Shown here one piece after another: positions 6,444 to 46,319 of a DNA stretch of 64,000 nt. The notes beneath the pieces are model-generated. The model was given only the letters and a program-made list of their open reading frames with translations. It was not told the DNA's origin and searched no databases. Origin of the DNA: Verrucomicrobiales bacterium (GTDB lineage Bacteria; Verrucomicrobiota; Verrucomicrobiia; Verrucomicrobiales; V1-33); assembly GCA_031411295.1 (NCBI GenBank), contig JANOAV010000057.1, positions 4,379 to 68,378 of the forward strand, written 5' to 3'. The translations under genes were made by a program, and so were the position numbers. Each line of letters begins with the position of its first letter. Within the stretch, counting starts at the first letter, position 1.

Positions 6444-7577
6444 ATGGCGCGCTCACTTCTCGCAGCGGTTGCTCTGAGTTTGCTGGCAATCGCCACCTTG
6501 GCCACCTCGGCCAGCGCGGCCCAGCGCGTGCTCTTCCTGGGTGACTCCTTAAGCATGGGGGCCTTCGGGACCACGCTGGACAAACGGTTGCGCGAGGCCG
6601 ACCTGGAAGTTTACACCTCCGTCACTGGTGGCGCCACCCCCGTCTATTGGTTGGAGGAATTCCCGCCCATGCCGACCGATATTGGGCATTGGAAGAAAAC
6701 GCCCAAGGAGGATCAACGCGTCAAAGTGCTGGACGCGACGCCCAAAGTGGAGGCGCTCATCGCTGCCTACAAGCCGGATGCCGTCATCGTGCAGACAGGC
6801 ACCAATCTATACTCGGCGCTACGTTCATCCAGGACCACCCCGGAACAGGCGCAGACCAAAGTGCTCAGCCTGATGCAGAAAATGGCTGCCGCCATCACCT
6901 CCCGTGGCTGCACCCTTTACTGGATTACCCCAGCCAGCGCGCATCCCGAAAAATTCCCGGCCCCGCTGCAACGACTCATGTTGGATCTAACCAAGCGGGC
7001 GGTGGGGACCTCCGGCCGCGTTTTCGACAGCTTTGCGGTCACCACCTACCAAGATCCCTATCCCGCCCCGGGCAATGACGGCATCCACTATGGCCCCACG
7101 GAAGCCGCCGCGTGGGCGGAAATCGTGGCTCCAGATGCCATTTCCTTTCTCAAAACAGGCCCGTCCCCGCGCATCCCCAAAGCCACCGTGCCACCGATCG
7201 CTCCGCGCGCCCGCATTGTGGAGGATGACCCCACCGAAGCGGATTCCAGCGCCCTGACTGCGGAAATTCGTCTGGTGCGCAAATCTGATTTCACCACGCC
7301 CTCAGAGATTACCTACAACAACGCCCTCGCCATCTACGAATGGGAAATCCTTCGCGTCATCGAAGGCACCCATTCCTCCAAGCGGATCCTCGTGGCGCAC
7401 CAAGTGGTTAAAGGTCGGAAAATAACCCCTGAGCGGGATCTCAAGTTGGGCAAAACCTACATCGTCCAACTCGTGCCCCTCAGCGACTATCCCAGCGTCG
7501 AAAGCTGGCAGACGATCGACAAAATCAGCCAGGACCTCTCCCGGCAAGGCACCATCTATATCCCGAAAATGGATTGA
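6444..7577 (+). CDS. SGNH/GDSL-family hydrolase with an extra C-terminal domain
   Basis: Signal peptide, block I 'RVLFLGDSLSMGAFG', and block V-like 'GNDGIHYG'. About 120 extra C-terminal residues of unknown fold. Confidence 0.7.
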   Translation: MARSLLAAVALSLLAIATLATSASAAQRVLFLGDSLSMGAFGTTLDKRLREADLEVYTSVTGGATPVYWLEEFPPMPTDIGHWKKTPKEDQRVKVLDATPKVEALIAAYKPDAVIVQTGTNLYSALRSSRTTPEQAQTKVLSLMQKMAAAITSRGCTLYWITPASAHPEKFPAPLQRLMLDLTKRAVGTSGRVFDSFAVTTYQDPYPAPGNDGIHYGPTEAAAWAEIVAPDAISFLKTGPSPRIPKATVPPIAPRARIVEDDPTEADSSALTAEIRLVRKSDFTTPSEITYNNALAIYEWEILRVIEGTHSSKRILVAHQVVKGRKITPERDLKLGKTYIVQLVPLSDYPSVESWQTIDKISQDLSRQGTIYIPKMD

Positions 7578-37298: not shown

Positions 37299-38023
37299 TT
37301 ATTGAGGTTCCCCCAAGAGTTTGGACAGGGTCTCGTCAATCGCGTCAGCCCAGATTTGGTAACCTTTCGGACCAGGGTGCAGGAAATCTGGCATCATTTC
37401 CTTCGTCATCGTGCCATCCGGTTCCAGGAACTTGGCTCCGATGTCCATATAATGCACCGTCTTGCCATCGGCCATCGGCTTCAGCAGATCATTAATCTTA
37501 TTGTTCAACTGACGGCCGGCATCCTCCGGCTTCTCGCCCCGCGGGAAGATTCCCAGCAACAACACCTTCACGCCCGGGCATTTTCCCTGAAGCTTGGTAA
37601 TGATGGCCTTAACGCCTGCGGCGGTATCCTCCGCTTTGTCCTTACGATGCCCGGTATTGTTCGTGCCGATCATCAGCACACGAGCTTCGGCTTCAGACCG
37701 TCGAAATTTCCATGATCCATCCGCCACAGCACATGCTCCGTGCGATCCCCGCTGATTCCGAAATTTGCCGCCTTCCGTTGGCCATAATATTTGGCCCAGA
37801 CTTCCTTGCCTTTCCCATCCCAACCTTGAGTAATGGAGTCTCCCAGAAAAACCAACTCTGCCGTGCCCTCTTTGGAAATCTTATTGAATTGCTCAATCCG
37901 ACCTTCCGTCTTGGCATGCAGTTCCGGCTTGAGCGCCAGGATTTCTGGAGTGGCATCCTGAGCCAAACTGATGCTGGTAAACGAGAGAAGTGCTATGGAC
38001 AGTAGGGAAATGGGTTTGATCAT
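37299..38023 (-). pseudogene. SGNH/GDSL hydrolase (PAF-acetylhydrolase-like) disrupted by a 1-nt frameshift
   Basis: The N-half (37673..38023) carries '[12 protein letters not shown]' and ends '...GLKPKLVC*'. The C-half (37299..37679, other frame) continues 'VLMIGTNN...' to 'DFLHPGPKGYQIWA'. GTGTG at 37677-37681 stands where GTGGTG would restore '[13 protein letters not shown]'. Confidence 0.75.
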
Positions 38024-38166
38024 GAAGCATCAATGCTAAATTCTGCGTCCGCTGTAAATAGGATTTCCGCCGTGAGTGCGGGAGCAAACGATCCGTAGAT
38101 CAATAAACAGAAGTTTCCGTGAAATGCGCGTTGATATTGCTATGCAACTCTGCCAACTTTCAATCC

Positions 38167-38889
38167 ATGGATTTTCCTGTCACTATCTGGACTCTCATTC
38201 ATCAAGCGCACCTGAATGGCAATACCGCTGCCCGCAGCGCCTTGGAAACGTTTTGTGAACAGTATCGACAGCCCGTAATCCAATTCCTGCGGCAACGTAA
38301 GGTGCTGGAGAATCGCGTTGAAGACATGGCCCATGATTTCCTGCTTCATCTCATGGAAAACGATGCCCTGCGGCGGGCCAACCCTGCCCGGGGCCGCTTC
38401 CGCACCTATCTACTAGCCGCTCTGCGAAACTTCATGGCCTCGGACATCGCGCACCAGAATGCCGGCAAGCGTGGGGGCGGAGCCAATCACCTCAGCATCG
38501 ACCTCCCGGACGTGGCCGATTTCCTGGCCGACCCGGCAGATCCTGAAGTTACCTCCCATGACCAAGCCTGGGCGGTTAACCTCATCACCGTCAGTTATCA
38601 AGCACTCGAGCAGGAACTCATCGCCAAAGGCAAAAGCGAACGCCTCGCAGCGCTGAAAAGTTTCGTGCTGCCAGGCCGCGCGCTCCCGTCGATGCTGGAA
38701 GTTGCCCAGGAACTGAATCTGGAGGAAGGGGCCGTGCGCACCGAGATTTCCCGCTACCGCAAACGCTTGCGCGAACTCTTCCGTGACGAGGTCGCCCGCA
38801 CCGTCGTGTCCGACACCGAGATCGAGGACGAAATCCACTACCTCCAGCAGGTCCTTACCAACCCAAGGGTTCCCATGCCCGAAGCGTAA
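38167..38889 (+). CDS. ECF-type sigma-70 family RNA polymerase sigma factor
   Basis: ATG at 38167. Sigma-2-like 'AHDFLLHLME...FRTYLLAALRNF' and a sigma-4 HTH 'EVAQELNLEEGAVRTEISRYRKRLRELF'. Confidence 0.75.
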   Translation: MDFPVTIWTLIHQAHLNGNTAARSALETFCEQYRQPVIQFLRQRKVLENRVEDMAHDFLLHLMENDALRRANPARGRFRTYLLAALRNFMASDIAHQNAGKRGGGANHLSIDLPDVADFLADPADPEVTSHDQAWAVNLITVSYQALEQELIAKGKSERLAALKSFVLPGRALPSMLEVAQELNLEEGAVRTEISRYRKRLRELFRDEVARTVVSDTEIEDEIHYLQQVLTNPRVPMPEA

Positions 38890-38999
38890 ATATCACCCGC
38901 CGCAAGAAACTTAGTAACACTGCCAGGAAAAATCCGTATTACTAAGAGAATAACAGCTGATCACTACCACCTGCGCGCGACTTCGCTGCGCCTCGATTC

Positions 39000-41978
39000 A
39001 TGGAAACCAACTGCCAACAGTGCGGCCAGGCCCTCATAGCGGGTCCAGGAGAATCCATGTTCTGCGCCAGTTGCGCCATGAACGACTTCCTGAACGAAGC
39101 CGCGGACGTGCCCACCCTCGTTGCCAGCGCCCCAGTCTCCGCCAAAGGCCGGGCCGTCATCGAAGGCCACGAACTTATCGAAGAACTCGCCCGCGGCGGC
39201 ATGGGTGTCGTTTACAAAGCCCGTCAACTCAGCCCGCGGCGGGATGTCGCCCTCAAAATGCTCCTGCCCGTGGGGGACAAGCTGGACGAATTCCGGGAAC
39301 GCTTCAGATTAGAAGCCCGCGCCCTGGCCGAGTTGGACCACCCGAGTATTCTGCCACTCTACGTGGCCGGAGAGCATGAAGGCATGCCCTTCTTCACCAT
39401 GAAACTGGCCCTCGGCGGTTCCCTGGCGCAATTACTCAAGGCCGGCAAGAAGCTCGATTTCAAGACCATCGCCAACCTCATCGCCACCTTGGGGGAAGCC
39501 GTCTTTTACGCCAACCAGCGCGGCATCCTCCATCGGGACATCAAACCCGGCAACATCCTCTTCGACGAAAACCAGCAACCCTTCCTGGCCGACTTCGGAC
39601 TCGCCAAATTAATCGGCGGAGATCCCGCCAACACCATGTCCATGGCCGCCATGGGCACCCCCTGCTACATGGCCCCGGAAGTCGCCACCCACGGAGCCAA
39701 ATCCGCCACCGCCAGCAGCGACGTTTACGGCCTCGGAGCCGTCCTCTACGAACTCCTGGCCGGCAAGCCCCCCTTCCAAGTCGAAGGCCTCGGAGCCATC
39801 CTCAAAAAAGTAGCCGAAGAAGCCCCCGAAGCCCCCTCCACCCTCGCCAAAGGCGTCCCACGCGACCTCGAAGTCATCTGCCTAACCTGCCTCGCCAAAG
39901 ACCCCAAAAAGCGCTACAGCACCGCCCAAGCCCTCTCCGAAGACCTCCAACGCTGGCTCCACGGAGAGCCCATCACCGCCCGCCGCGTCGGCCCCGCCGA
40001 ACGCCTCTGGTCCTGGGCCAAACGTCATCCAGGGTTGGCAGGCATGAGCGCTGCGCTGCTGGTGACACTGAGTGCGGGGAGCGCGTGGCTGTGGGTGCAG
40101 AACTTGAGACTGGATGCGGCACTCGTAAAGGAAAGCCAAGCCAAGCGGGAGGCCCTCCAGAATAATTTGGCATTACAAGACCGAATCGAGTTCCTAACTG
40201 GTGATTTTGCGGACTACATGGAGAGCATAGGAAGGATCGATCTATTGGAGATGGTCTGGAAGGACTTAGACAAAACCTATTCTTTGGGGGCTAACTTGAA
40301 CGTTGCGGCATCCGGACAACTCAGGAGAAGCAGGCTGCTCTCCCGATGGAGTCGCGCTCAACAATTACAAGGCGAGTCTCAATCAGCTGTCGAGTTAGCC
40401 CAACGAGCCGTGGATGCGGTGGCCGACGCTTCGACATTGCCAGATTATGACACCCAGCAAGGAATAGAAGCGCTTGGGACAGCAAAGATTGCAATGGCTG
40501 AGGCACAAGCCGGACGCGGTGATTTTCAGGCGGCTATGCAAACATTGGATTTTCTAAGCCAAAGTCCGTCAAGTGAGCCGATCCCTTTATTGTCAGCCGA
40601 GGTTGAACTGGCCAAGACAGCCACGATTCTTCGCATTAACTCTAGCAGCGAGATTGGTGAGGAAGCATCGAAGCATGCTGAACTGGCATTGACATCGGCT
40701 CAGCAAGCCTTCCAGTCGAACTCGAAATCAGCAATTTCAATCGAAATACTGGGACGCTCCCTCTTGGCGAAAGCGGAGACAACCCTCGCGAAACTTGGAA
40801 TGATGGACGCACCAGCGATGGCAAATTTTGAGACGTTGAGGGCCAATGCACCACTATCATTATACAAAAATGCCGCAGAATTCCTAGCCAATGCGATGAA
40901 GGAGACGCCAAAAAACTCTAGCCTGACACGACACTATAATGATGCAGTAAGTAGTCAGATCTACATCCTAAACCGGATGCCCGGAAGGGAAATGGAGGCT
41001 GAGCAATCGTTGCGAGCTAATGTGGCAAGGCTGAAGTTATTGGCTGACCAAGACCCATTAAACTGGCGCTGGAAACTCGACTTGGCTGATGCTTACTCTG
41101 CATCAGCCACATTATTTCGTCGGAAGGGTGAATTACCCGAGGAATTAAGTAGTCGAACTCAATCCTGTGAGACGGCTAGGCTTGCCCTCGAAGCTGCTCC
41201 TGAGGGATATCGCCCCTCCCTATTGGTTATCCGGTCGGAGAAAGCACTTGGGGAGTTGCACCTCAAGCAGGGTAATGTGGATGCTGGAAAACGTTCATTC
41301 GAGATCTCCCTCCAAACAGCTCATGGATTGTTGGCTCGTCACGGACACAAGCTTACCGAGGTTCTTGGCTACAAAAAGGTCATGGAAGAAATGCTCGGTG
41401 AGCTTGCCAAGGTTTCCCCTGACGCGGGAATTGAACTGTCCCGCCGCGAAATGAGTTGGATTGAGGAATTTGGCGGCACCTCCCCCAGCAGCCCGTGGGT
41501 TTACGCCGCAGCAGCTGCGCAACGTCGCCTTGCCAGTGCGCACAAAGCACGGGGCGATTTTGCAGAAGCAATGAATTACACCCAGCAAGCCCTGCTTAAA
41601 CGGGTAGCGCTCCTGCGGCAGACTTGGGAACCTGAGCGGCTTGATGGCGATGTCTGGCACGGCTATCAAGAAATGGCGAAATTGCAAGTGCACGAAAACA
41701 TGATTACAGAAGCCCTGGAAACGGCCGAGCAAGCCCTGGCAATACGCAGGGAATTCCCCCACCTAAAGAGCAGCCGCCATCAATGGTGCGCCCCCTTATT
41801 GGAAGTGTTGAACAAGGCCCTCTCAACTGGAGGTCCTACCACCGTGCGGGCTGAAAGTATAGCAGGATTGGCTTACGACCTTCTCTACGGCCCCGATCAG
41901 CCAAAAATTGAGAGCGCGGAGGACCAACTAGCTGCCGGGATTTTAGAAAAGTCGAGGAAGTTGCCAGCAGAACCATAA
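39000..41978 (+). CDS. Membrane Ser/Thr protein kinase (Hanks type): N-terminal zinc ribbon, one TM helix, ~620-aa helical/TPR-like extracytoplasmic region
   Basis: CxxC...CxxC 'CQQCGQ...CASCA'. Kinase motifs 'GGMGVVYKA', 'VALKML', 'HRDIKPGNIL', 'DFGLAK', 'YMAPE'. TM 'GLAGMSAALLVTLSAGSAWLWV'. Confidence 0.9.
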   Translation: METNCQQCGQALIAGPGESMFCASCAMNDFLNEAADVPTLVASAPVSAKGRAVIEGHELIEELARGGMGVVYKARQLSPRRDVALKMLLPVGDKLDEFRERFRLEARALAELDHPSILPLYVAGEHEGMPFFTMKLALGGSLAQLLKAGKKLDFKTIANLIATLGEAVFYANQRGILHRDIKPGNILFDENQQPFLADFGLAKLIGGDPANTMSMAAMGTPCYMAPEVATHGAKSATASSDVYGLGAVLYELLAGKPPFQVEGLGAILKKVAEEAPEAPSTLAKGVPRDLEVICLTCLAKDPKKRYSTAQALSEDLQRWLHGEPITARRVGPAERLWSWAKRHPGLAGMSAALLVTLSAGSAWLWVQNLRLDAALVKESQAKREALQNNLALQDRIEFLTGDFADYMESIGRIDLLEMVWKDLDKTYSLGANLNVAASGQLRRSRLLSRWSRAQQLQGESQSAVELAQRAVDAVADASTLPDYDTQQGIEALGTAKIAMAEAQAGRGDFQAAMQTLDFLSQSPSSEPIPLLSAEVELAKTATILRINSSSEIGEEASKHAELALTSAQQAFQSNSKSAISIEILGRSLLAKAETTLAKLGMMDAPAMANFETLRANAPLSLYKNAAEFLANAMKETPKNSSLTRHYNDAVSSQIYILNRMPGREMEAEQSLRANVARLKLLADQDPLNWRWKLDLADAYSASATLFRRKGELPEELSSRTQSCETARLALEAAPEGYRPSLLVIRSEKALGELHLKQGNVDAGKRSFEISLQTAHGLLARHGHKLTEVLGYKKVMEEMLGELAKVSPDAGIELSRREMSWIEEFGGTSPSSPWVYAAAAAQRRLASAHKARGDFAEAMNYTQQALLKRVALLRQTWEPERLDGDVWHGYQEMAKLQVHENMITEALETAEQALAIRREFPHLKSSRHQWCAPLLEVLNKALSTGGPTTVRAESIAGLAYDLLYGPDQPKIESAEDQLAAGILEKSRKLPAEP

Positions 41979-41998
41979 CACTACACCCCAGCCATCTC

Positions 41999-43186
41999 GT
42001 GAATCAATCCTTTCCTTTCCACCAACAAGACTGCGCTAATACCTGCGGCCCCGCCTGCGTAATGATGGCGCTGGAGGCGTTAGGTGCTGCGACCACGAGG
42101 ACGCAACAGGAACTATTGTTGAGCACTGGGGTGACCACAGATGCCAACGGGAATTGGTCAAGTGCACCCGACGGGATCGGACGCACCATGAATTCTCTGT
42201 TAGGGACCAGTGCCATCGGCTATGAAGTAAAAGCCTATAGGTTCGACGATCTAAACTCCCTTGAGCTAGTCCATGAAATCGTTGAGAGGACTACAGAGGC
42301 GATGCAGGCAACCAATGCCCCTGCTTTTATCCTAGTGGATGACACATCGCACTGGATTTTGCTGGAGGCAGCTAGGTGGGACGGCGCGTGGGAGTTATTC
42401 ACCTCCGATCCTTTCTCAGGGGTAGAAGGCTGCTTGAGTCCTCTTCCAACCCATGGAGTTAGCCCGTGCGGCGCGTGCGGTCTGGGGGGGCTCACGCCAG
42501 CAACAGAAGAAACCCTGTGGAGTAAAATGACCGTTGTTTCGCTTGGAGATAATTGGAGAAATCACTATGTGGTAGTAACTCCGGTGCGTCGATCTGCGGG
42601 TGCGGGCCTAGGTAAGAAAAGAATCGAGTTCATCGCCAAACACCTGCGAGAGAGAATCAACTTGGATATTCCCCTGGCAGCTCCGCAACCTCGCCCTGGA
42701 CCAATCCTCAGCACCGGAATATGGCAGCAGCTACCTCGAAGCCTTCAGTCGGCCCTCTTGGAAGGAAAAATTGAGAAGCGATGGAAAGTTCGTCGCAGCG
42801 GAACGGCAGCATTAGGCTATGAAATTGTCCAACTCGCCTCCTCCAAACTTGGGGACACCTACGCGCTGGCGATTGTTGAAGAGGGCATGCTGCATGACTT
42901 GCGCCTAATTCAAAAAGGGAGCAAGCTGGAGAAACAACTGCTGCCAGTGGAGGCCAGCAAGGAGGAGTTATTGCAGAAACTCAAGCAGCAGCTTCCTCAA
43001 GAGCAAGCAGCTAAGGTATCTCCAGAGACCGTTGAAATCGCTAACGGATTCGAGTGGCGATCCTCCGCCGCAACACCTTCAAAATTCCGCCCATTTTATT
43101 CCCTGCGACTAGCGGATAAAACTTACTACCTCACCAAAGAATTTCGCCTACTCACCGAGCTGCCGCCAGGCCGACAAGGTAACTGA
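41999..43186 (+). CDS. Cytoplasmic C39-like (papain-fold) cysteine peptidase domain protein with unknown C-terminal half
   Basis: GTG start 20 nt after the kinase stop. 'HQQDCANTCGPACVMMALEALG' (Gln/Cys) and 'DDTSHWILLEAA...TSDP' (His/Asp) fit the C39-like pattern. No signal peptide. Confidence 0.6.
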   Translation: MNQSFPFHQQDCANTCGPACVMMALEALGAATTRTQQELLLSTGVTTDANGNWSSAPDGIGRTMNSLLGTSAIGYEVKAYRFDDLNSLELVHEIVERTTEAMQATNAPAFILVDDTSHWILLEAARWDGAWELFTSDPFSGVEGCLSPLPTHGVSPCGACGLGGLTPATEETLWSKMTVVSLGDNWRNHYVVVTPVRRSAGAGLGKKRIEFIAKHLRERINLDIPLAAPQPRPGPILSTGIWQQLPRSLQSALLEGKIEKRWKVRRSGTAALGYEIVQLASSKLGDTYALAIVEEGMLHDLRLIQKGSKLEKQLLPVEASKEELLQKLKQQLPQEQAAKVSPETVEIANGFEWRSSAATPSKFRPFYSLRLADKTYYLTKEFRLLTELPPGRQGN

Positions 43187-43257
43187 ATCTGCTCTGGGCG
43201 AACTACGGAATTCACCCGCAATTAAACAACAAACAACAAACAACCAAAACCAAAATT

Positions 43258-43956
43258 ATGACAAAATATTATGCAGCAGTTACCGCAACGTTAGACGCGT
43301 TGCTTTTGCTGAATCCTATGCCTACCCTAGACAGGGATCTTGTGAACGTGTGGCTGAATGGAAATGGCACAGCTGCTACGCCTGGTATAAAAAACTTGGT
43401 CGCAACGCTGAAGACCAAAATAGCAGACCTCAAACGGCAAAAGAAAACACTGAAGCGAGCCTATCGGCTAGGGGCTTTGGGCTTGGTGCAGCGGCTTGCG
43501 AATATCTCGCCCGTCAGCGGAGCCAGATGCAATGCGCTTGACTTACTGTTGGCCAACTCCACGTGGACGGGTGCCCCTATGGCTGGGCGCGATTCACTCG
43601 AGTTTTATTCTGGCGGGGGCGCACCGCCAGTGAATTATTTGGAACTCAAAAACTATTTTGATAAATTAGAAGACGCACGCAAGGCTGCCGTTGAGGTTAT
43701 TACTCACCTCAGAGGAGATACGGCTCTGAACCAAACCAATCCAGGTGAGTTGGCTGATGCGCTGGACAGGATTCTCAACGGCCCCACGGCCATCAATTCT
43801 GACCTGCGCGACGAAATGAAGGACCTTATTGTTGCCATGAAACACCATATGGCAGTCAAAGGGCAATTCGGTGGCGGAAATGGCGAAAACTCGTCCTATT
43901 GGCCCAGTTCCTTCATCGCGAGTAGCAGCTCCAGCAGCACGCCGCCGCCTCCGTGA
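43258..43956 (+). CDS. Hypothetical protein ending in FGGG plus a Ser-rich, Pro-capped tail
   Basis: 232-aa ORF behind an (AACAA)n leader. The tail is '...KGQFGGGNGENSSYWPSSFIASSSSSSTPPPP'. Confidence 0.55.
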   Translation: MTKYYAAVTATLDALLLLNPMPTLDRDLVNVWLNGNGTAATPGIKNLVATLKTKIADLKRQKKTLKRAYRLGALGLVQRLANISPVSGARCNALDLLLANSTWTGAPMAGRDSLEFYSGGGAPPVNYLELKNYFDKLEDARKAAVEVITHLRGDTALNQTNPGELADALDRILNGPTAINSDLRDEMKDLIVAMKHHMAVKGQFGGGNGENSSYWPSSFIASSSSSSTPPPP

Positions 43957-43983
43957 CTAAGACGGCCGGCATTGGCGTGCCGC

Positions 43984-45093
43984 TCATTTTCCAAACACCG
44001 CCCGCCACCACATGCGGTGCTCTTTGGCATTACACAAGTGTTCCACGGCCCAGTTTCTGGTGCCGTGGGACATTTGTTTTAGGAGCGCGCGGTCTTGTTG
44101 GAGGGCTCGGGCGTAGTGGCCGTAGTCGGCGTTGGTGTTGCAGAGGTAGCCGGAGACTTCGTGTTGCACGAGGTTTTCGAGATGGTGGCCGTTGCCTCTG
44201 GGGAGGATGGGGACGGCTCCGGTGAGCATGGCTTCGACCACGGCTCGGCCCCAGCTTTCTTTGAACCGGGGGCTGGTGTTATAGACGAGGAGGTCCAGGC
44301 TGTGCAGGAAGTCCACGGTGGGAATGCTGGCGGGTTCCAGGAGTTCCCAGCGGCTGTCGAATTCGTGGTGGCTCCAGCGGCTGGTGAGGTCCTCGCTCCA
44401 GGCCATGACGCGAAATTTCACGGGGTCGGTGAGTCCCAGACGCTCGTAGAATTTAGGGAAGTCATCGGGAAATTTACTGGGGTCCGGGCGGGAGAGTCGG
44501 CCGATGGTGAACGGTCGGTTTTCCGACTGCCAATGACCCCGCTCACGGAAGGGAAAGAGCGCAGGATCAATGTAATTTCCTGTCATTACCCAAGGCAGCG
44601 TGTTGTCCCCCACTTGCATGACTCCGGACCAATCGGTGGATGATGCGATCGCTGGTTCCGGGGAGATTTCTCCTCCCAGCATTTTGACATAACCGGGTTC
44701 CAGTTCCCGGCGTTGGGCGGGGGAAACGTAGAGCACCTTATCGATCAGACCGCTTTGCACGGCGGCGGCTTCGCCCTTGAAGTGCCACATCATTTCGCTG
44801 CTCCAGGCGATCTTCAGGCCGCGTCGCTTCATTTCAGCGGCCATGCCGTTGTCGAGGAAGGGGCCATTGCACAGTGCAATCGCCCAGCCTTCGAGTTGTT
44901 CCGGTAGCTCGGACATCAGCTTGATGTCCACGCCGAGCGCCCGCACTTCGGCGGTCCAAGGGGTGTCCAGATACCGTGCTTCATTGGGGATCACAGTGAT
45001 CTCATACTCGGTGTGCAGGAGGCGCAGGAGATGAGAAAACTTCGTGTCCGCGCCCCCGATGGCAGACGGCCAGTTGAACCAGTAAATGTGCAT
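43984..45093 (-). CDS. Glycosyltransferase, GT4/GT1-fold family
   Basis: 'SPRFKESWGRAVVEAMLTGAVPILPRGNGHHLENLVQHEVSGYL' is an E-x7-E type motif. I prefer the start 'MHIYWFNWP' at 45093, although the ORF stays open to 45162. Confidence 0.8.
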   Translation of the reverse strand: MHIYWFNWPSAIGGADTKFSHLLRLLHTEYEITVIPNEARYLDTPWTAEVRALGVDIKLMSELPEQLEGWAIALCNGPFLDNGMAAEMKRRGLKIAWSSEMMWHFKGEAAAVQSGLIDKVLYVSPAQRRELEPGYVKMLGGEISPEPAIASSTDWSGVMQVGDNTLPWVMTGNYIDPALFPFRERGHWQSENRPFTIGRLSRPDPSKFPDDFPKFYERLGLTDPVKFRVMAWSEDLTSRWSHHEFDSRWELLEPASIPTVDFLHSLDLLVYNTSPRFKESWGRAVVEAMLTGAVPILPRGNGHHLENLVQHEVSGYLCNTNADYGHYARALQQDRALLKQMSHGTRNWAVEHLCNAKEHRMWWRAVFGK

Positions 45094-45329
45094 TGAGCAG
45101 TGGTATAGCAGGTTGCTGAGAGGGTGCAATCGTAAGCGTCGGACGATGGTTTTCACGGCCATTTCCCGGCATTGCGCCTCAAAATCCCTTTGTCAGGTGA
45201 CGGCGGCGGGACGCACGCCGCTCCCAGTGGGGGGCAATTATGCTTCAAACTTCCACAAACTAAGAATTATTTGCGACTCCTGCCATTTCGCTTTTGTAAT
45301 TTCCAAAATTGGTCATAAACTTCGCACCC

Positions 45330-46319
45330 ATGTTTAAAAATGCTCGATATCGCGATAAAAAAGTCTGCGTCGTTACTGGCGGTGCAGGATTCCTCGGCTC
45401 CCATCTCACTGACCGATTGCTCAAGGAGGGCTATCGAGTCATTGGGATCGATAATTTGCTGACTGGGTCCACGCGCAACATCGAGCATCTGGCTGGCAAC
45501 GAGAATTATCATTTCATCCACCACGACGTCTCCAACTACATCTTCGTGGAAGGCCGGGTGGACTTCGTGTTCCACTTCGCCTCCCCAGCCAGCCCCATCG
45601 ATTACCTGGAACTGCCGATCCAGACCCTGAAAGTCGGTTCCCTGGGCACCCACAATGCCCTGGGCCTGGCCAAGGCCAAGGGAGCTACTTTCCTGCTGGC
45701 CTCCACCTCCGAGGTCTATGGCGATCCGCTAATCCATCCCCAGAAGGAAGACTACTGGGGCAACGTCAACCCGGTGGGCCCACGCGGCGTCTATGATGAA
45801 GCCAAGCGCTTTGCCGAAGCCATCACCATGGCCTATCATACTTACCATCGGCTCGACACCAAGATCGTCCGCATCTTCAACACCTATGGTCCCCGCATGC
45901 GCTTGGAAGACGGTCGCGTGGTCCCTGCCTTCTGCGGCCAGGCCCTCAAAGGTGAGCCGCTTACCATCCAAGGCGATGGTTCCCAAACCCGCAGTTTCAC
46001 CTACGTGAGCGACCTCATCGACGGCATCTTCCGCTTGGCCCACAGCGAAGAGCATCAGCCTACCAACGTTGGCAACCCGCGGGAAATGAGCATCAAACAA
46101 TTTGCGGATGCCGTCCTCAACATCATCGACTCCCCCGCTGGGATTGCCTATCGCCCACTGCCAGCAGACGATCCCAAAGTGCGCCAACCGGACATCGAGA
46201 AAGCCAAACGCGTCCTCGGGTGGGAACCCAAAGTTCCGTTTGAAGAAGGCATCCTTCCGACCATCGCCTACTTCATCAGCGTCCTGGGAGAAGAGGCCAA
46301 ATGCAAGCTCAAGTCCTAA
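45330..46319 (+). CDS. UDP-glucuronate decarboxylase (UDP-xylose synthase), SDR family
   Basis: '[18 protein letters not shown]', 'STSEVYGDP', 'YDEAKR', '[10 protein letters not shown]'. Confidence 0.9.

Follow-up and report, generated by a model that had tools for sequence, protein, structure and literature searches.

A stretch of 64,000 nt from a Verrucomicrobiales bacterium (contig JANOAV010000057.1; the whole stretch is referred to below as the window) contains a gene cluster that belongs to a five-part, lineage-specific module, consisting of an extracytoplasmic function (ECF) sigma factor, a receptor kinase, a C39-fold peptidase, a glycosyltransferase and a small protein with a conserved C-terminal tail. 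Four genes lie on the forward strand. They encode an ECF-type sigma factor of 240 amino acids (aa) (38167-38889; open reading frame (ORF) call and family-level profiles), a receptor Ser/Thr kinase of 992 aa (39000-41978; Pkinase profile, motifs and clade membership), a C39-fold cysteine peptidase of 395 aa (41999-43186; AlphaFold2 (AF2) model, Foldseek and catalytic residues) and a small helical tail protein of 232 aa, termed p232 (43258-43956; tail motif shared with relatives). The gaps between these genes measure 110, 20 and 71 nt. The fifth gene is located on the opposite strand (43984-45162) and is predicted to encode a 392-aa enzyme resembling glycosyltransferase family 4 (GT4, GT-B fold), based on orthologues at the same position and a codon-position test. 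An earlier note on this DNA had described the four forward genes as one cluster, and their ORF coordinates, gaps and motifs match that description. The linkage of the four genes was borne out as well, but the module extends further than had been proposed, as the conserved glycosyltransferase gene also belongs to it. Gene sets in related loci (designated L009 and so forth) are based on our own ORF calls with labels from BLAST and hidden Markov model searches, and many of the contigs are short. All linked copies originate from one bacterial family and a few metagenome contigs, and the counts given below are not independent of each other.

In the bacterial family of the window, the peptidase profile matched at 21 distinct places in 14 of 38 genomes. 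A kinase with an N-terminal Zn ribbon adjoins 20 of these 21 copies, and the 19 of 20 copies outside the window that have this neighbour in several gene orders support the earlier proposal that the peptidase and p232 extend a sigma factor/kinase pair. No match at E <= 1e-5 was obtained in 400 other genomes of the phylum, for which few candidates were scored per genome. The order sigma factor-kinase-peptidase is found in the window, L010 and L116, sigma factor-peptidase-kinase in L009, L014, L105, L107 and L108, and peptidase-kinase followed at some distance by the sigma factor in L015; further arrangements include versions with a gene for a family 25 glycosyltransferase (GT25), and stop and start codons often overlap. 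Membership is kept while order and orientation change and while the identity between peptidase copies amounts to only 20-35%. The metagenome contigs L116 and L129, which come with independent gene calls and Pfam labels, repeat the architecture of the window, with the order kinase, short peptidase, GT4 enzyme and tail protein in L129.

The peptidase harbors the motifs QQDCANTCGPAC (residues 9-20), SHWILL (117-122) and SDP (136-138). According to family alignments the catalytic set comprises Gln10, Cys16, His118 and Asp137. The papain-type Q/C/H/D residues recognized before are conserved, and the alignments place the nucleophile at Cys16 and not at Cys12. Of 21 copies, all have Cys16 and His118, 16 have Gln10 and 18 have Asp or Asn at position 137. 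Because of the invariant Cys16 and His118, the peptidases look like active enzymes and not like degenerate binding domains. In line with the predicted lack of a signal peptide, the protein has no N-terminal hydrophobic signal, and the catalytic motif begins at residue 8. The public gene call for the peptidase begins at Met23 (373 aa), which excludes window positions 41999-42067 and the HQQD...Cys16 motif. Since this start removes Cys16 and homologues align from residue 4, the GTG codon at 41999 is the better start, and Met23 is most likely mis-called.

Among Pfam profiles, the window peptidase scored 24.8 bits with DUF3335 (cut-off 25), 21.2 bits with Peptidase_C39_2 (cut-off 24) and 12.5 bits with Peptidase_C39 (cut-off 22). 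Typical relatives matched C39_2 at E <= 0.01 in 11 of 13 cases, with a best value of E = 1e-5. An AF2 model built from 94 sequences reached a predicted local distance difference test (pLDDT) score of 83.6 and a predicted template modelling (pTM) score of 0.80, whereas a run with 8 sequences was too poor for use (pLDDT 52.7). The top Foldseek match of the model, and its sole strong match in the PDB, was 6mpz_D, the double-glycine protease LahT150 (E = 1e-4, probability 1.00, target TM score 0.68). On the basis of this model the peptidase is predicted to have the papain-like fold of LahT150 with the nucleophilic Cys on the N-terminal helix. The C39-like assignment thus holds at the level of the fold, but the curated profile thresholds are missed. 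Because of these scores and the lack of a transporter context, the protein is filed here as C39-like and not as a member of the family. For the C-terminal domain (approximately residues 240-395), which has no Pfam match and shows a YYxVP...VDAxTG pattern in the family consensus, Foldseek returned weak matches to the PepSY-type structures 4exr (E = 0.04), 3nqz (E = 0.14) and 5boi (E = 0.31), and this domain is tentatively described as PepSY-like.

A word-based search of 5.8 billion proteins retrieved only the peptidase itself. A family profile built from 8 distant copies in related genomes detected 853 cluster representatives (50% identity) at E <= 1e-3 and 371 at E <= 1e-10; the protein therefore belongs to a large unnamed two-domain family. 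Its members are found across many phyla, are mostly 390-440 aa long and match end to end, with the N-terminal signature (P)YHQQDxxxYCGAACAQMVL ... HW ... (D/N)P and a conserved C-terminal domain. The usual neighbour in 80 loci of this wider family (L016-L095) is a paralogue of 135-155 aa (about 140) directly downstream that consists of the C-terminal domain only, for example L018:10001-11212 followed by L018:11221-11682. No Pfam or NCBIfam family covers either the protein with C39 fold and C-terminal domain or this paralogue. As the peptidase tree of the wider family does not track taxonomy, horizontal spread of the two-gene cassette is suggested. A general link between the peptidase family and kinases was rejected, since a kinase was located nearby in 4 of the 80 wider-family loci and the module in none. 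The peptidases of one subclade carry long fused extensions at the C-terminus, which contain coiled coil or fibronectin type III repeats and are Pro-rich at their ends, giving proteins of 637-821 aa (L101:1165-3432, L102:2758-4953, L103:3151-5613 and L104:8459-10369, the last of them on contig C181 of the window's own genome).

The convergent gene at 43984-45162 shares 49-60% identity with the gene found at this place in 10 other loci, which invariably lies on the opposite strand. The genome of the window has only two copies of this family, and both are found at peptidase/kinase loci. The window protein scored 18.6 bits with Glycos_transf_1 (cut-off 26.4) and gave weak matches to BshA and a GT4 NCBIfam model, and orthologues with 55-60% identity carry recorded PF13692/PF00534 matches. 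By these matches the gene is predicted to encode a GT4-like glycosyltransferase; it is a conserved member of the module. In the third subclade the GT4 slot is occupied by a GT25 enzyme (PF01755, above the cut-off), whose gene runs in the direction of the cluster. Each of the 18 loci for which the sequence sufficed contains a glycosyltransferase, GT4-like in 11 and GT25 in 7. The occurrence of two non-homologous glycosyltransferase families in one slot points to glycosylation as a required step. In reciprocal searches the GT4 gene was more widespread than the peptidase. Antisense to the GT4 gene, many loci have a frame that stays open over about 420 codons (43953-45337 on the forward strand of the window). 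A long co-directional gene in this frame was rejected, as orthologues differ at 7030, 6006 and 12041 sites at GT4 codon positions 1, 2 and 3, respectively. Because these counts put selection on the GT4 strand, the antisense frame is probably a shadow frame.

The C-terminal end of p232 reads ...FGGGNGENSSYWPSSFIASSSSSSTPPPP, with the conserved tail encoded at 43867-43953. The body of the protein showed no meaningful match in Pfam or the PDB, and p232 retrieved only itself in the word-based search of 5.8 billion proteins. Nine family members were found in this collection, none of them informatively named, and all that could be placed are located in loci of this module. A tail with the consensus G-[GS]-x-G-[DE]-x3-[YT]-W-P-S-x-[YF]-[VI]-S-S-S-S-S is present in the window, L009, L012, L014, L098, L106, L107, L109, L111, L116, L117, L119 and L127. 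Other loci show a second form with LGGGDDCSxSIK followed by poly-Ser (L011, L015, L121), a third form with Gly/Ser tails (L105, L108) or a fourth form with ...YFYxAADALMGGGG followed by 12-16 variable residues (L099, L101, L103, L104). A small protein with a GG-type motif and a short tail was found in 18 of the 18 loci with enough sequence. The protein had been described as GG-tailed; a Gly-rich motif is indeed present, but it reads G-[GS]-x-G-[DE] and is not a strict Gly-Gly. p232 is homologous to the F13 proteins (hhalign 96.5%), and some bodies of tail proteins show no detectable similarity to each other. Homology of the 120-aa ALMGGGG proteins to p232 and F13 was not supported (hhalign probability 2%). 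In loci with the gene order of the window, the tail gene is followed by a gene whose 290-aa product is strongly conserved at 58-84% identity and has no match in Pfam (L010:4872-5762(-), L098:11766-12653(+), L109:3756-4628(+), L111:4871-5719(+), L127:2605-3492(+)). In the genome of the window this gene is located elsewhere, on contig C72. A giant cadherin-repeat protein follows the 290-aa gene in two metagenome contigs (L109:4795-6936, L128:1695-10639).

The kinase comprises a Zn ribbon (39012-39074; C5xxC8...C22xxC25), a Hanks domain (approximately 39174-39941; Pkinase E = 2e-45, residues 59-314) with VALK, HRDIKPGN and DFG motifs, a single hydrophobic transmembrane helix (40032-40097; residues 345-366) and an ectodomain of about 620 helical residues with weak matches to tetratricopeptide repeats (TPR) (40098-41975). 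Judging from these motifs it is an intact Hanks kinase. Its ectodomain is similar only to kinases from peptidase loci. The kinases adjoining peptidases form one clade (Shimodaira-Hasegawa-like approximate likelihood ratio test 99) of 18 linked and 3 unlinked kinases. Three subclades of kinases correspond to three subclades of peptidases, and by this congruence the two proteins have diversified in parallel. In three genomes the kinase ORF lacks the usual stop and continues through the antisense frame of the GT4 gene to a length of 1382-1417 aa (L009:3779-7924(-), L012:9791-14041(+), L014:3887-8107(-)).

The sigma factor of the window alone remained below the curated cut-offs of Sigma70_r2 (21 bits, cut-off 24) and TIGR02937 (39.3 bits, cut-off 42.9). 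Of nine module sigma factors, eight match Sigma70_r2 and four match PF07638 (Sigma70_ECF), and the top PDB matches are the ECF factors SigE, RpoE and CnrH. Judged on the module sigma factors as a family, a two-domain (sigma2 plus sigma4) ECF architecture is clear from these profiles. The window protein has an N-terminal FPxTxW motif, RVED at the position of the region-2.2 'DAED' motif, a KRGGG linker and a conserved C-terminal helix, and Glu52-Asp53 are invariant across the nine module sigma factors. Members of group ECF43 have lost the DAED motif of region 2.2 and possess a phospho-acceptor Ser/Thr instead (PMC8999054). The label ECF43, which the earlier note had given for such pairs, is not supported because the window sigma factor retains Glu-Asp in this motif; it may fit among the kinase-linked ECF groups of the Planctomycetes-Verrucomicrobia-Chlamydiae (PVC) bacteria. 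The genome of the window (G000) encodes more than 60 Hanks kinases and 34 paralogues of the sigma factor; for 27 of these paralogues a Ser/Thr kinase gene lies within 6 kb. This expansion of sigma factor/kinase pairs is unusually large. Only 3 of the 27 pairs in the genome of the window carry the peptidase. No anti-sigma domain was recognized in the neighbours of the window sigma factor. The hexamer TTTCCG is located 53-149 nt upstream of the first module gene in 6 of 6 orthologous loci, twice in the window (38064-38120), before the sigma factor gene in L010, L116, L009 and L014 and before the kinase gene in L106; roughly one in four of the other upstream regions examined has it as well. As a family-wide promoter box of these sigma factors it was rejected for the genome of the window, where only 2 of 22 paralogue upstream regions contain it. 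As a lead only, it could represent a -35-like box in a promoter under autoregulation.

The reading we favour, although tentatively and with slightly less than even confidence, is that the tail protein is a shared cytoplasmic substrate of the accessory enzymes and that its processing tunes or executes the output of kinase and sigma factor. The kinase would sense a periplasmic cue and switch on the sigma factor by phosphorylation. Activation of the sigma factor by the kinase is known from EcfP/PknT and EcfK/PknS (PMC8999054). The glycosyltransferase would O-glycosylate the Ser run of the tail protein, which the kinase may also phosphorylate, and the peptidase would cut at a Gly-Gly-type site just ahead of the tail. 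The consequence for sigma factor output could be activating or damping, with either the body or the tail as the active product. This substrate reading is favoured by the peptidase fold, which belongs to a class of enzymes specialized for Gly-Gly sites, and by the occurrence of two unrelated glycosyltransferase families in one slot beside Ser-run proteins. Furthermore, a short motif is conserved on otherwise divergent small proteins, which suggests that the tail is recognized by a co-encoded enzyme.

Several observations weigh against a shared substrate. Two relatives have PGRG, so the motif is not a strict GG. Substrates of LahT-type proteases have a GG, GA or GS site with hydrophobic residues at positions -4, -7 and -12 (PMC10885120). 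p232 lacks this hydrophobic pattern, which is roughly fitted only by the 120-aa proteins with ...YFYxAADALMGGGG. What follows the Gly motif in p232 is conserved, in contrast to the variable core peptide that would be typical. The C39-family profiles matched the window peptidase below their curated cut-offs and over residues 4-59 only. One peptidase copy stands alone (contig C196 of G000), and only some 13 of 22 loci yielded a sigma factor gene. Kinase/GT4 loci without a peptidase number at least five (L120, L122, L123, L124, L126); some of these also carry a sigma factor and a tail protein, and L117 consists of GT4, tail protein and sigma factor genes without peptidase or kinase. Due to these peptidase-less kinase/GT4 loci, the deeper core of the module appears to be kinase, glycosyltransferase and Ser-tail protein, with the peptidase as a frequent but optional member. 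In favour of the substrate reading, the Ser run of the tail protein is not preceded by Gly-Gly in 4 of 6 loci without a peptidase; L122 and L117, which keep the GG motif, count against it. The tracking of peptidase absence with the missing Gly-Gly is suggestive and represents about two independent lineages only.

Alternatively, the accessory genes could be outputs of the pathway, with glycosyltransferase and peptidase modifying something else (for instance a glycan of the envelope, a lipid-linked or peptidoglycan precursor or a large adhesin) and the tail protein acting as an unrelated, uncut cofactor. We regard this as unlikely, although ECF sigma factors commonly control adjoining genes and GT4 and GT25 enzymes act mostly on envelope glycans. 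It would accommodate the optional nature of the peptidase in kinase/GT4 loci, the type-A metagenome loci that run on into the 290-aa protein and the giant cadherin-repeat protein, and papain-fold relatives such as the phytochelatin-synthase-like Alr0975 (a weak match), which act on small peptides. However, the position of the peptidase gene between sigma factor and kinase genes with overlapping codons (L009, L105, L107, L108) would be unusual for a target gene, the retention of the short tail motif across divergent small proteins argues for recognition by a co-encoded enzyme, and no transporter, exporter or lipid-carrier gene recurs in the 22 loci.

Cleavage of the signalling proteins themselves, in which the peptidase would, for example, cut the sigma factor at the KRGGG linker or remove the N-terminal Zn ribbon of the kinase and thereby switch the pathway on or off, seems quite improbable to us. 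KRGGG is near-invariant between regions 2 and 4 of the module sigma factors, the Zn-ribbon loop is rich in Gly (AGPGES in the window; FGGE, GGGV and PGGG in relatives), the genes for peptidase and kinase are closely coupled, and ECF sigma factors are known to be controlled by proteolysis (PMC8999054). On the other hand, the Zn ribbon is not specific for the module, as most peptidase-less kinases of the genome align with the window kinase from its first residues, and the similarity of the sigma factors extends to paralogues paired with such kinases. This explanation would also leave the conserved glycosyltransferase and tail protein unaccounted for. A bolder proposal, to which we assign a comparably low likelihood, is that kinase-linked ECF sigma factors have their missing regulator in the Ser-tail protein, which would then be a cytoplasmic anti-sigma factor or adaptor of a new kind. 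Its tail would act as a three-way switch that the receptor kinase phosphorylates, the co-encoded glycosyltransferase O-glycosylates and the stand-alone C39-fold protease clips at the Gly-Gly-type site, and this processing would set sigma factor activity.

It is doubtful, and in our estimate distinctly improbable, that the module is a self-signalling circuit resembling those of peptides made on the ribosome and modified after translation (RiPPs). In such a circuit a precursor with a very long leader would be cut after Gly-Gly, glycosylated, exported and sensed by the TPR-like ectodomain, analogous to ComC/ComAB/ComDE and to glycocin maturation. The peptidase fold is that of a double-glycine leader protease, the succession of leader, GG site and short C-terminal peptide is present, with a 120-aa family that is conserved up to GGGG and variable in the tail, and the kinase ectodomains vary between module subclades. 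Long GG leaders (more than 70 residues) and glycosylated GG-leader peptides have precedents (PMC10885120). Nevertheless, no exporter recurs in any of at least 22 loci, the peptidase is not fused to an ABC transporter, the leaders would be folded and 100-200 residues long, and the tails of the p232 type are low-complexity Ser runs that are conserved and not variable. Finally, a purely historical adjacency, in which an ancestral arrangement was inherited and the peptidase or p232 is functionally unconnected with kinase and sigma factor, is highly improbable: the linked copies do come from one bacterial family and a few metagenome contigs and are non-independent, and only 4 of the 80 wider-family loci have any kinase nearby, but membership is kept through repeated changes of order and orientation at 20-35% peptidase identity, the kinase and peptidase subclades are congruent, and GT25 replaces the GT4-like enzyme in the same slot.

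In the surroundings of the cluster, the stops of the p232 and GT4 genes are separated by 27 nt that include a hairpin (43967-43982, given on the forward strand), which was found by consensus scan only and is a possible candidate for a two-way terminator. A scan of the window for sigma-70 promoters and terminators gave counts at or near the shuffled expectation, with terminators not clearly above it. The G+C content is 0.63 at 39000-39999, which includes the Zn ribbon and kinase domain, and 0.51-0.54 over the ectodomain, peptidase and p232 genes. Upstream of the cluster, a 174-aa ORF on the reverse strand (37299-38023) encodes a GDSL/SGNH hydrolase that covers positions 60-178 of the 178 positions of the Pfam model, its C-terminal two thirds, with a second overlapping ORF just upstream. 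Assignment to a known defence system was rejected, as PADLOC matched the generic kinase domain only and gave nothing for the other four proteins.

The gene set, which recurs in one bacterial family, is apparently previously undescribed. No description of the module was found among the papers searched, in agreement with the earlier note's statement on a kinase-protease module, and the ECF reviews and the reclassification paper (PMC7826278) consulted mention no peptidase, glycosyltransferase or tail protein beside kinase-linked ECF sigma factors. Such sigma factors are abundant in PVC bacteria and are understood from two or three proteobacterial examples without further known partners. A subclass with a glycosyltransferase, a Ser-tail protein and usually a protease would add proteolysis and possibly protein glycosylation to this type of signalling, and the module offers a concrete, small set of proteins for testing. 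In addition, a fold and a context are assigned to a large unannotated family that includes a C39-fold enzyme of stand-alone, cytoplasmic type. For the removal of leader peptides, double-glycine proteases of the stand-alone kind are in demand as tools (PMC10885120).

The peptidase shares the papain-type fold, with the Cys at the start of the N-terminal helix, with LahT150 (PDB 6MPZ) and the C39 domains of ComA and PCAT1. It has the same arrangement of Gln-x5-Cys-Gly ... His-Trp ... Asp-Pro as the C39 domains of the peptidase-containing ATP-binding transporters (PCAT) and the ABC transporters for maturation and secretion (AMS), and Gly-Gly-type proteins are likewise co-encoded. Unlike these domains, it is stand-alone and cytoplasmic, is neither fused to nor located beside an ABC exporter, carries an extra C-terminal domain of about 150 aa and scores below the Pfam cut-offs; its putative substrates are folded, measure 120-260 aa and end in a short tail. 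The location of the sigma factor beside a membrane Hanks kinase without a recognizable anti-sigma factor corresponds to EcfP/PknT of Vibrio parahaemolyticus, EcfK/PknS of Xanthomonas citri and ECF43. The planctomycetal groups ECF59-62 and ECF217 are further kinase-linked ECFs with the same pairing. The acidic Glu-Asp of region 2.2 sets the window sigma factor apart from ECF43 (PMC8999054).

With regard to the glycosyltransferase, the closest parallel is provided by GtfA/GtfB, in which cytoplasmic GT4 enzymes O-glycosylate streptococcal serine-rich repeat adhesins. Here too, a soluble GT4-type (GT-B) enzyme is encoded beside a Ser-run protein. In contrast to those systems, glycosylation is predicted for a short C-terminal Ser tail on a small helical protein and not for the long repeat of a secreted adhesin, and no accessory Sec system is present. 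The combination of leader, GG-type site, short peptide, glycosyltransferase and C39-fold protease resembles SunA/SunS/SunT and the NHLP/Nif11 GG-leader precursors. The module differs from glycocin and lanthipeptide gene sets in having no exporter and no Cys-rich or typical core peptides; its glycosyltransferases are of the GT4 and GT25 types, and the set is associated with a receptor kinase and a sigma factor.

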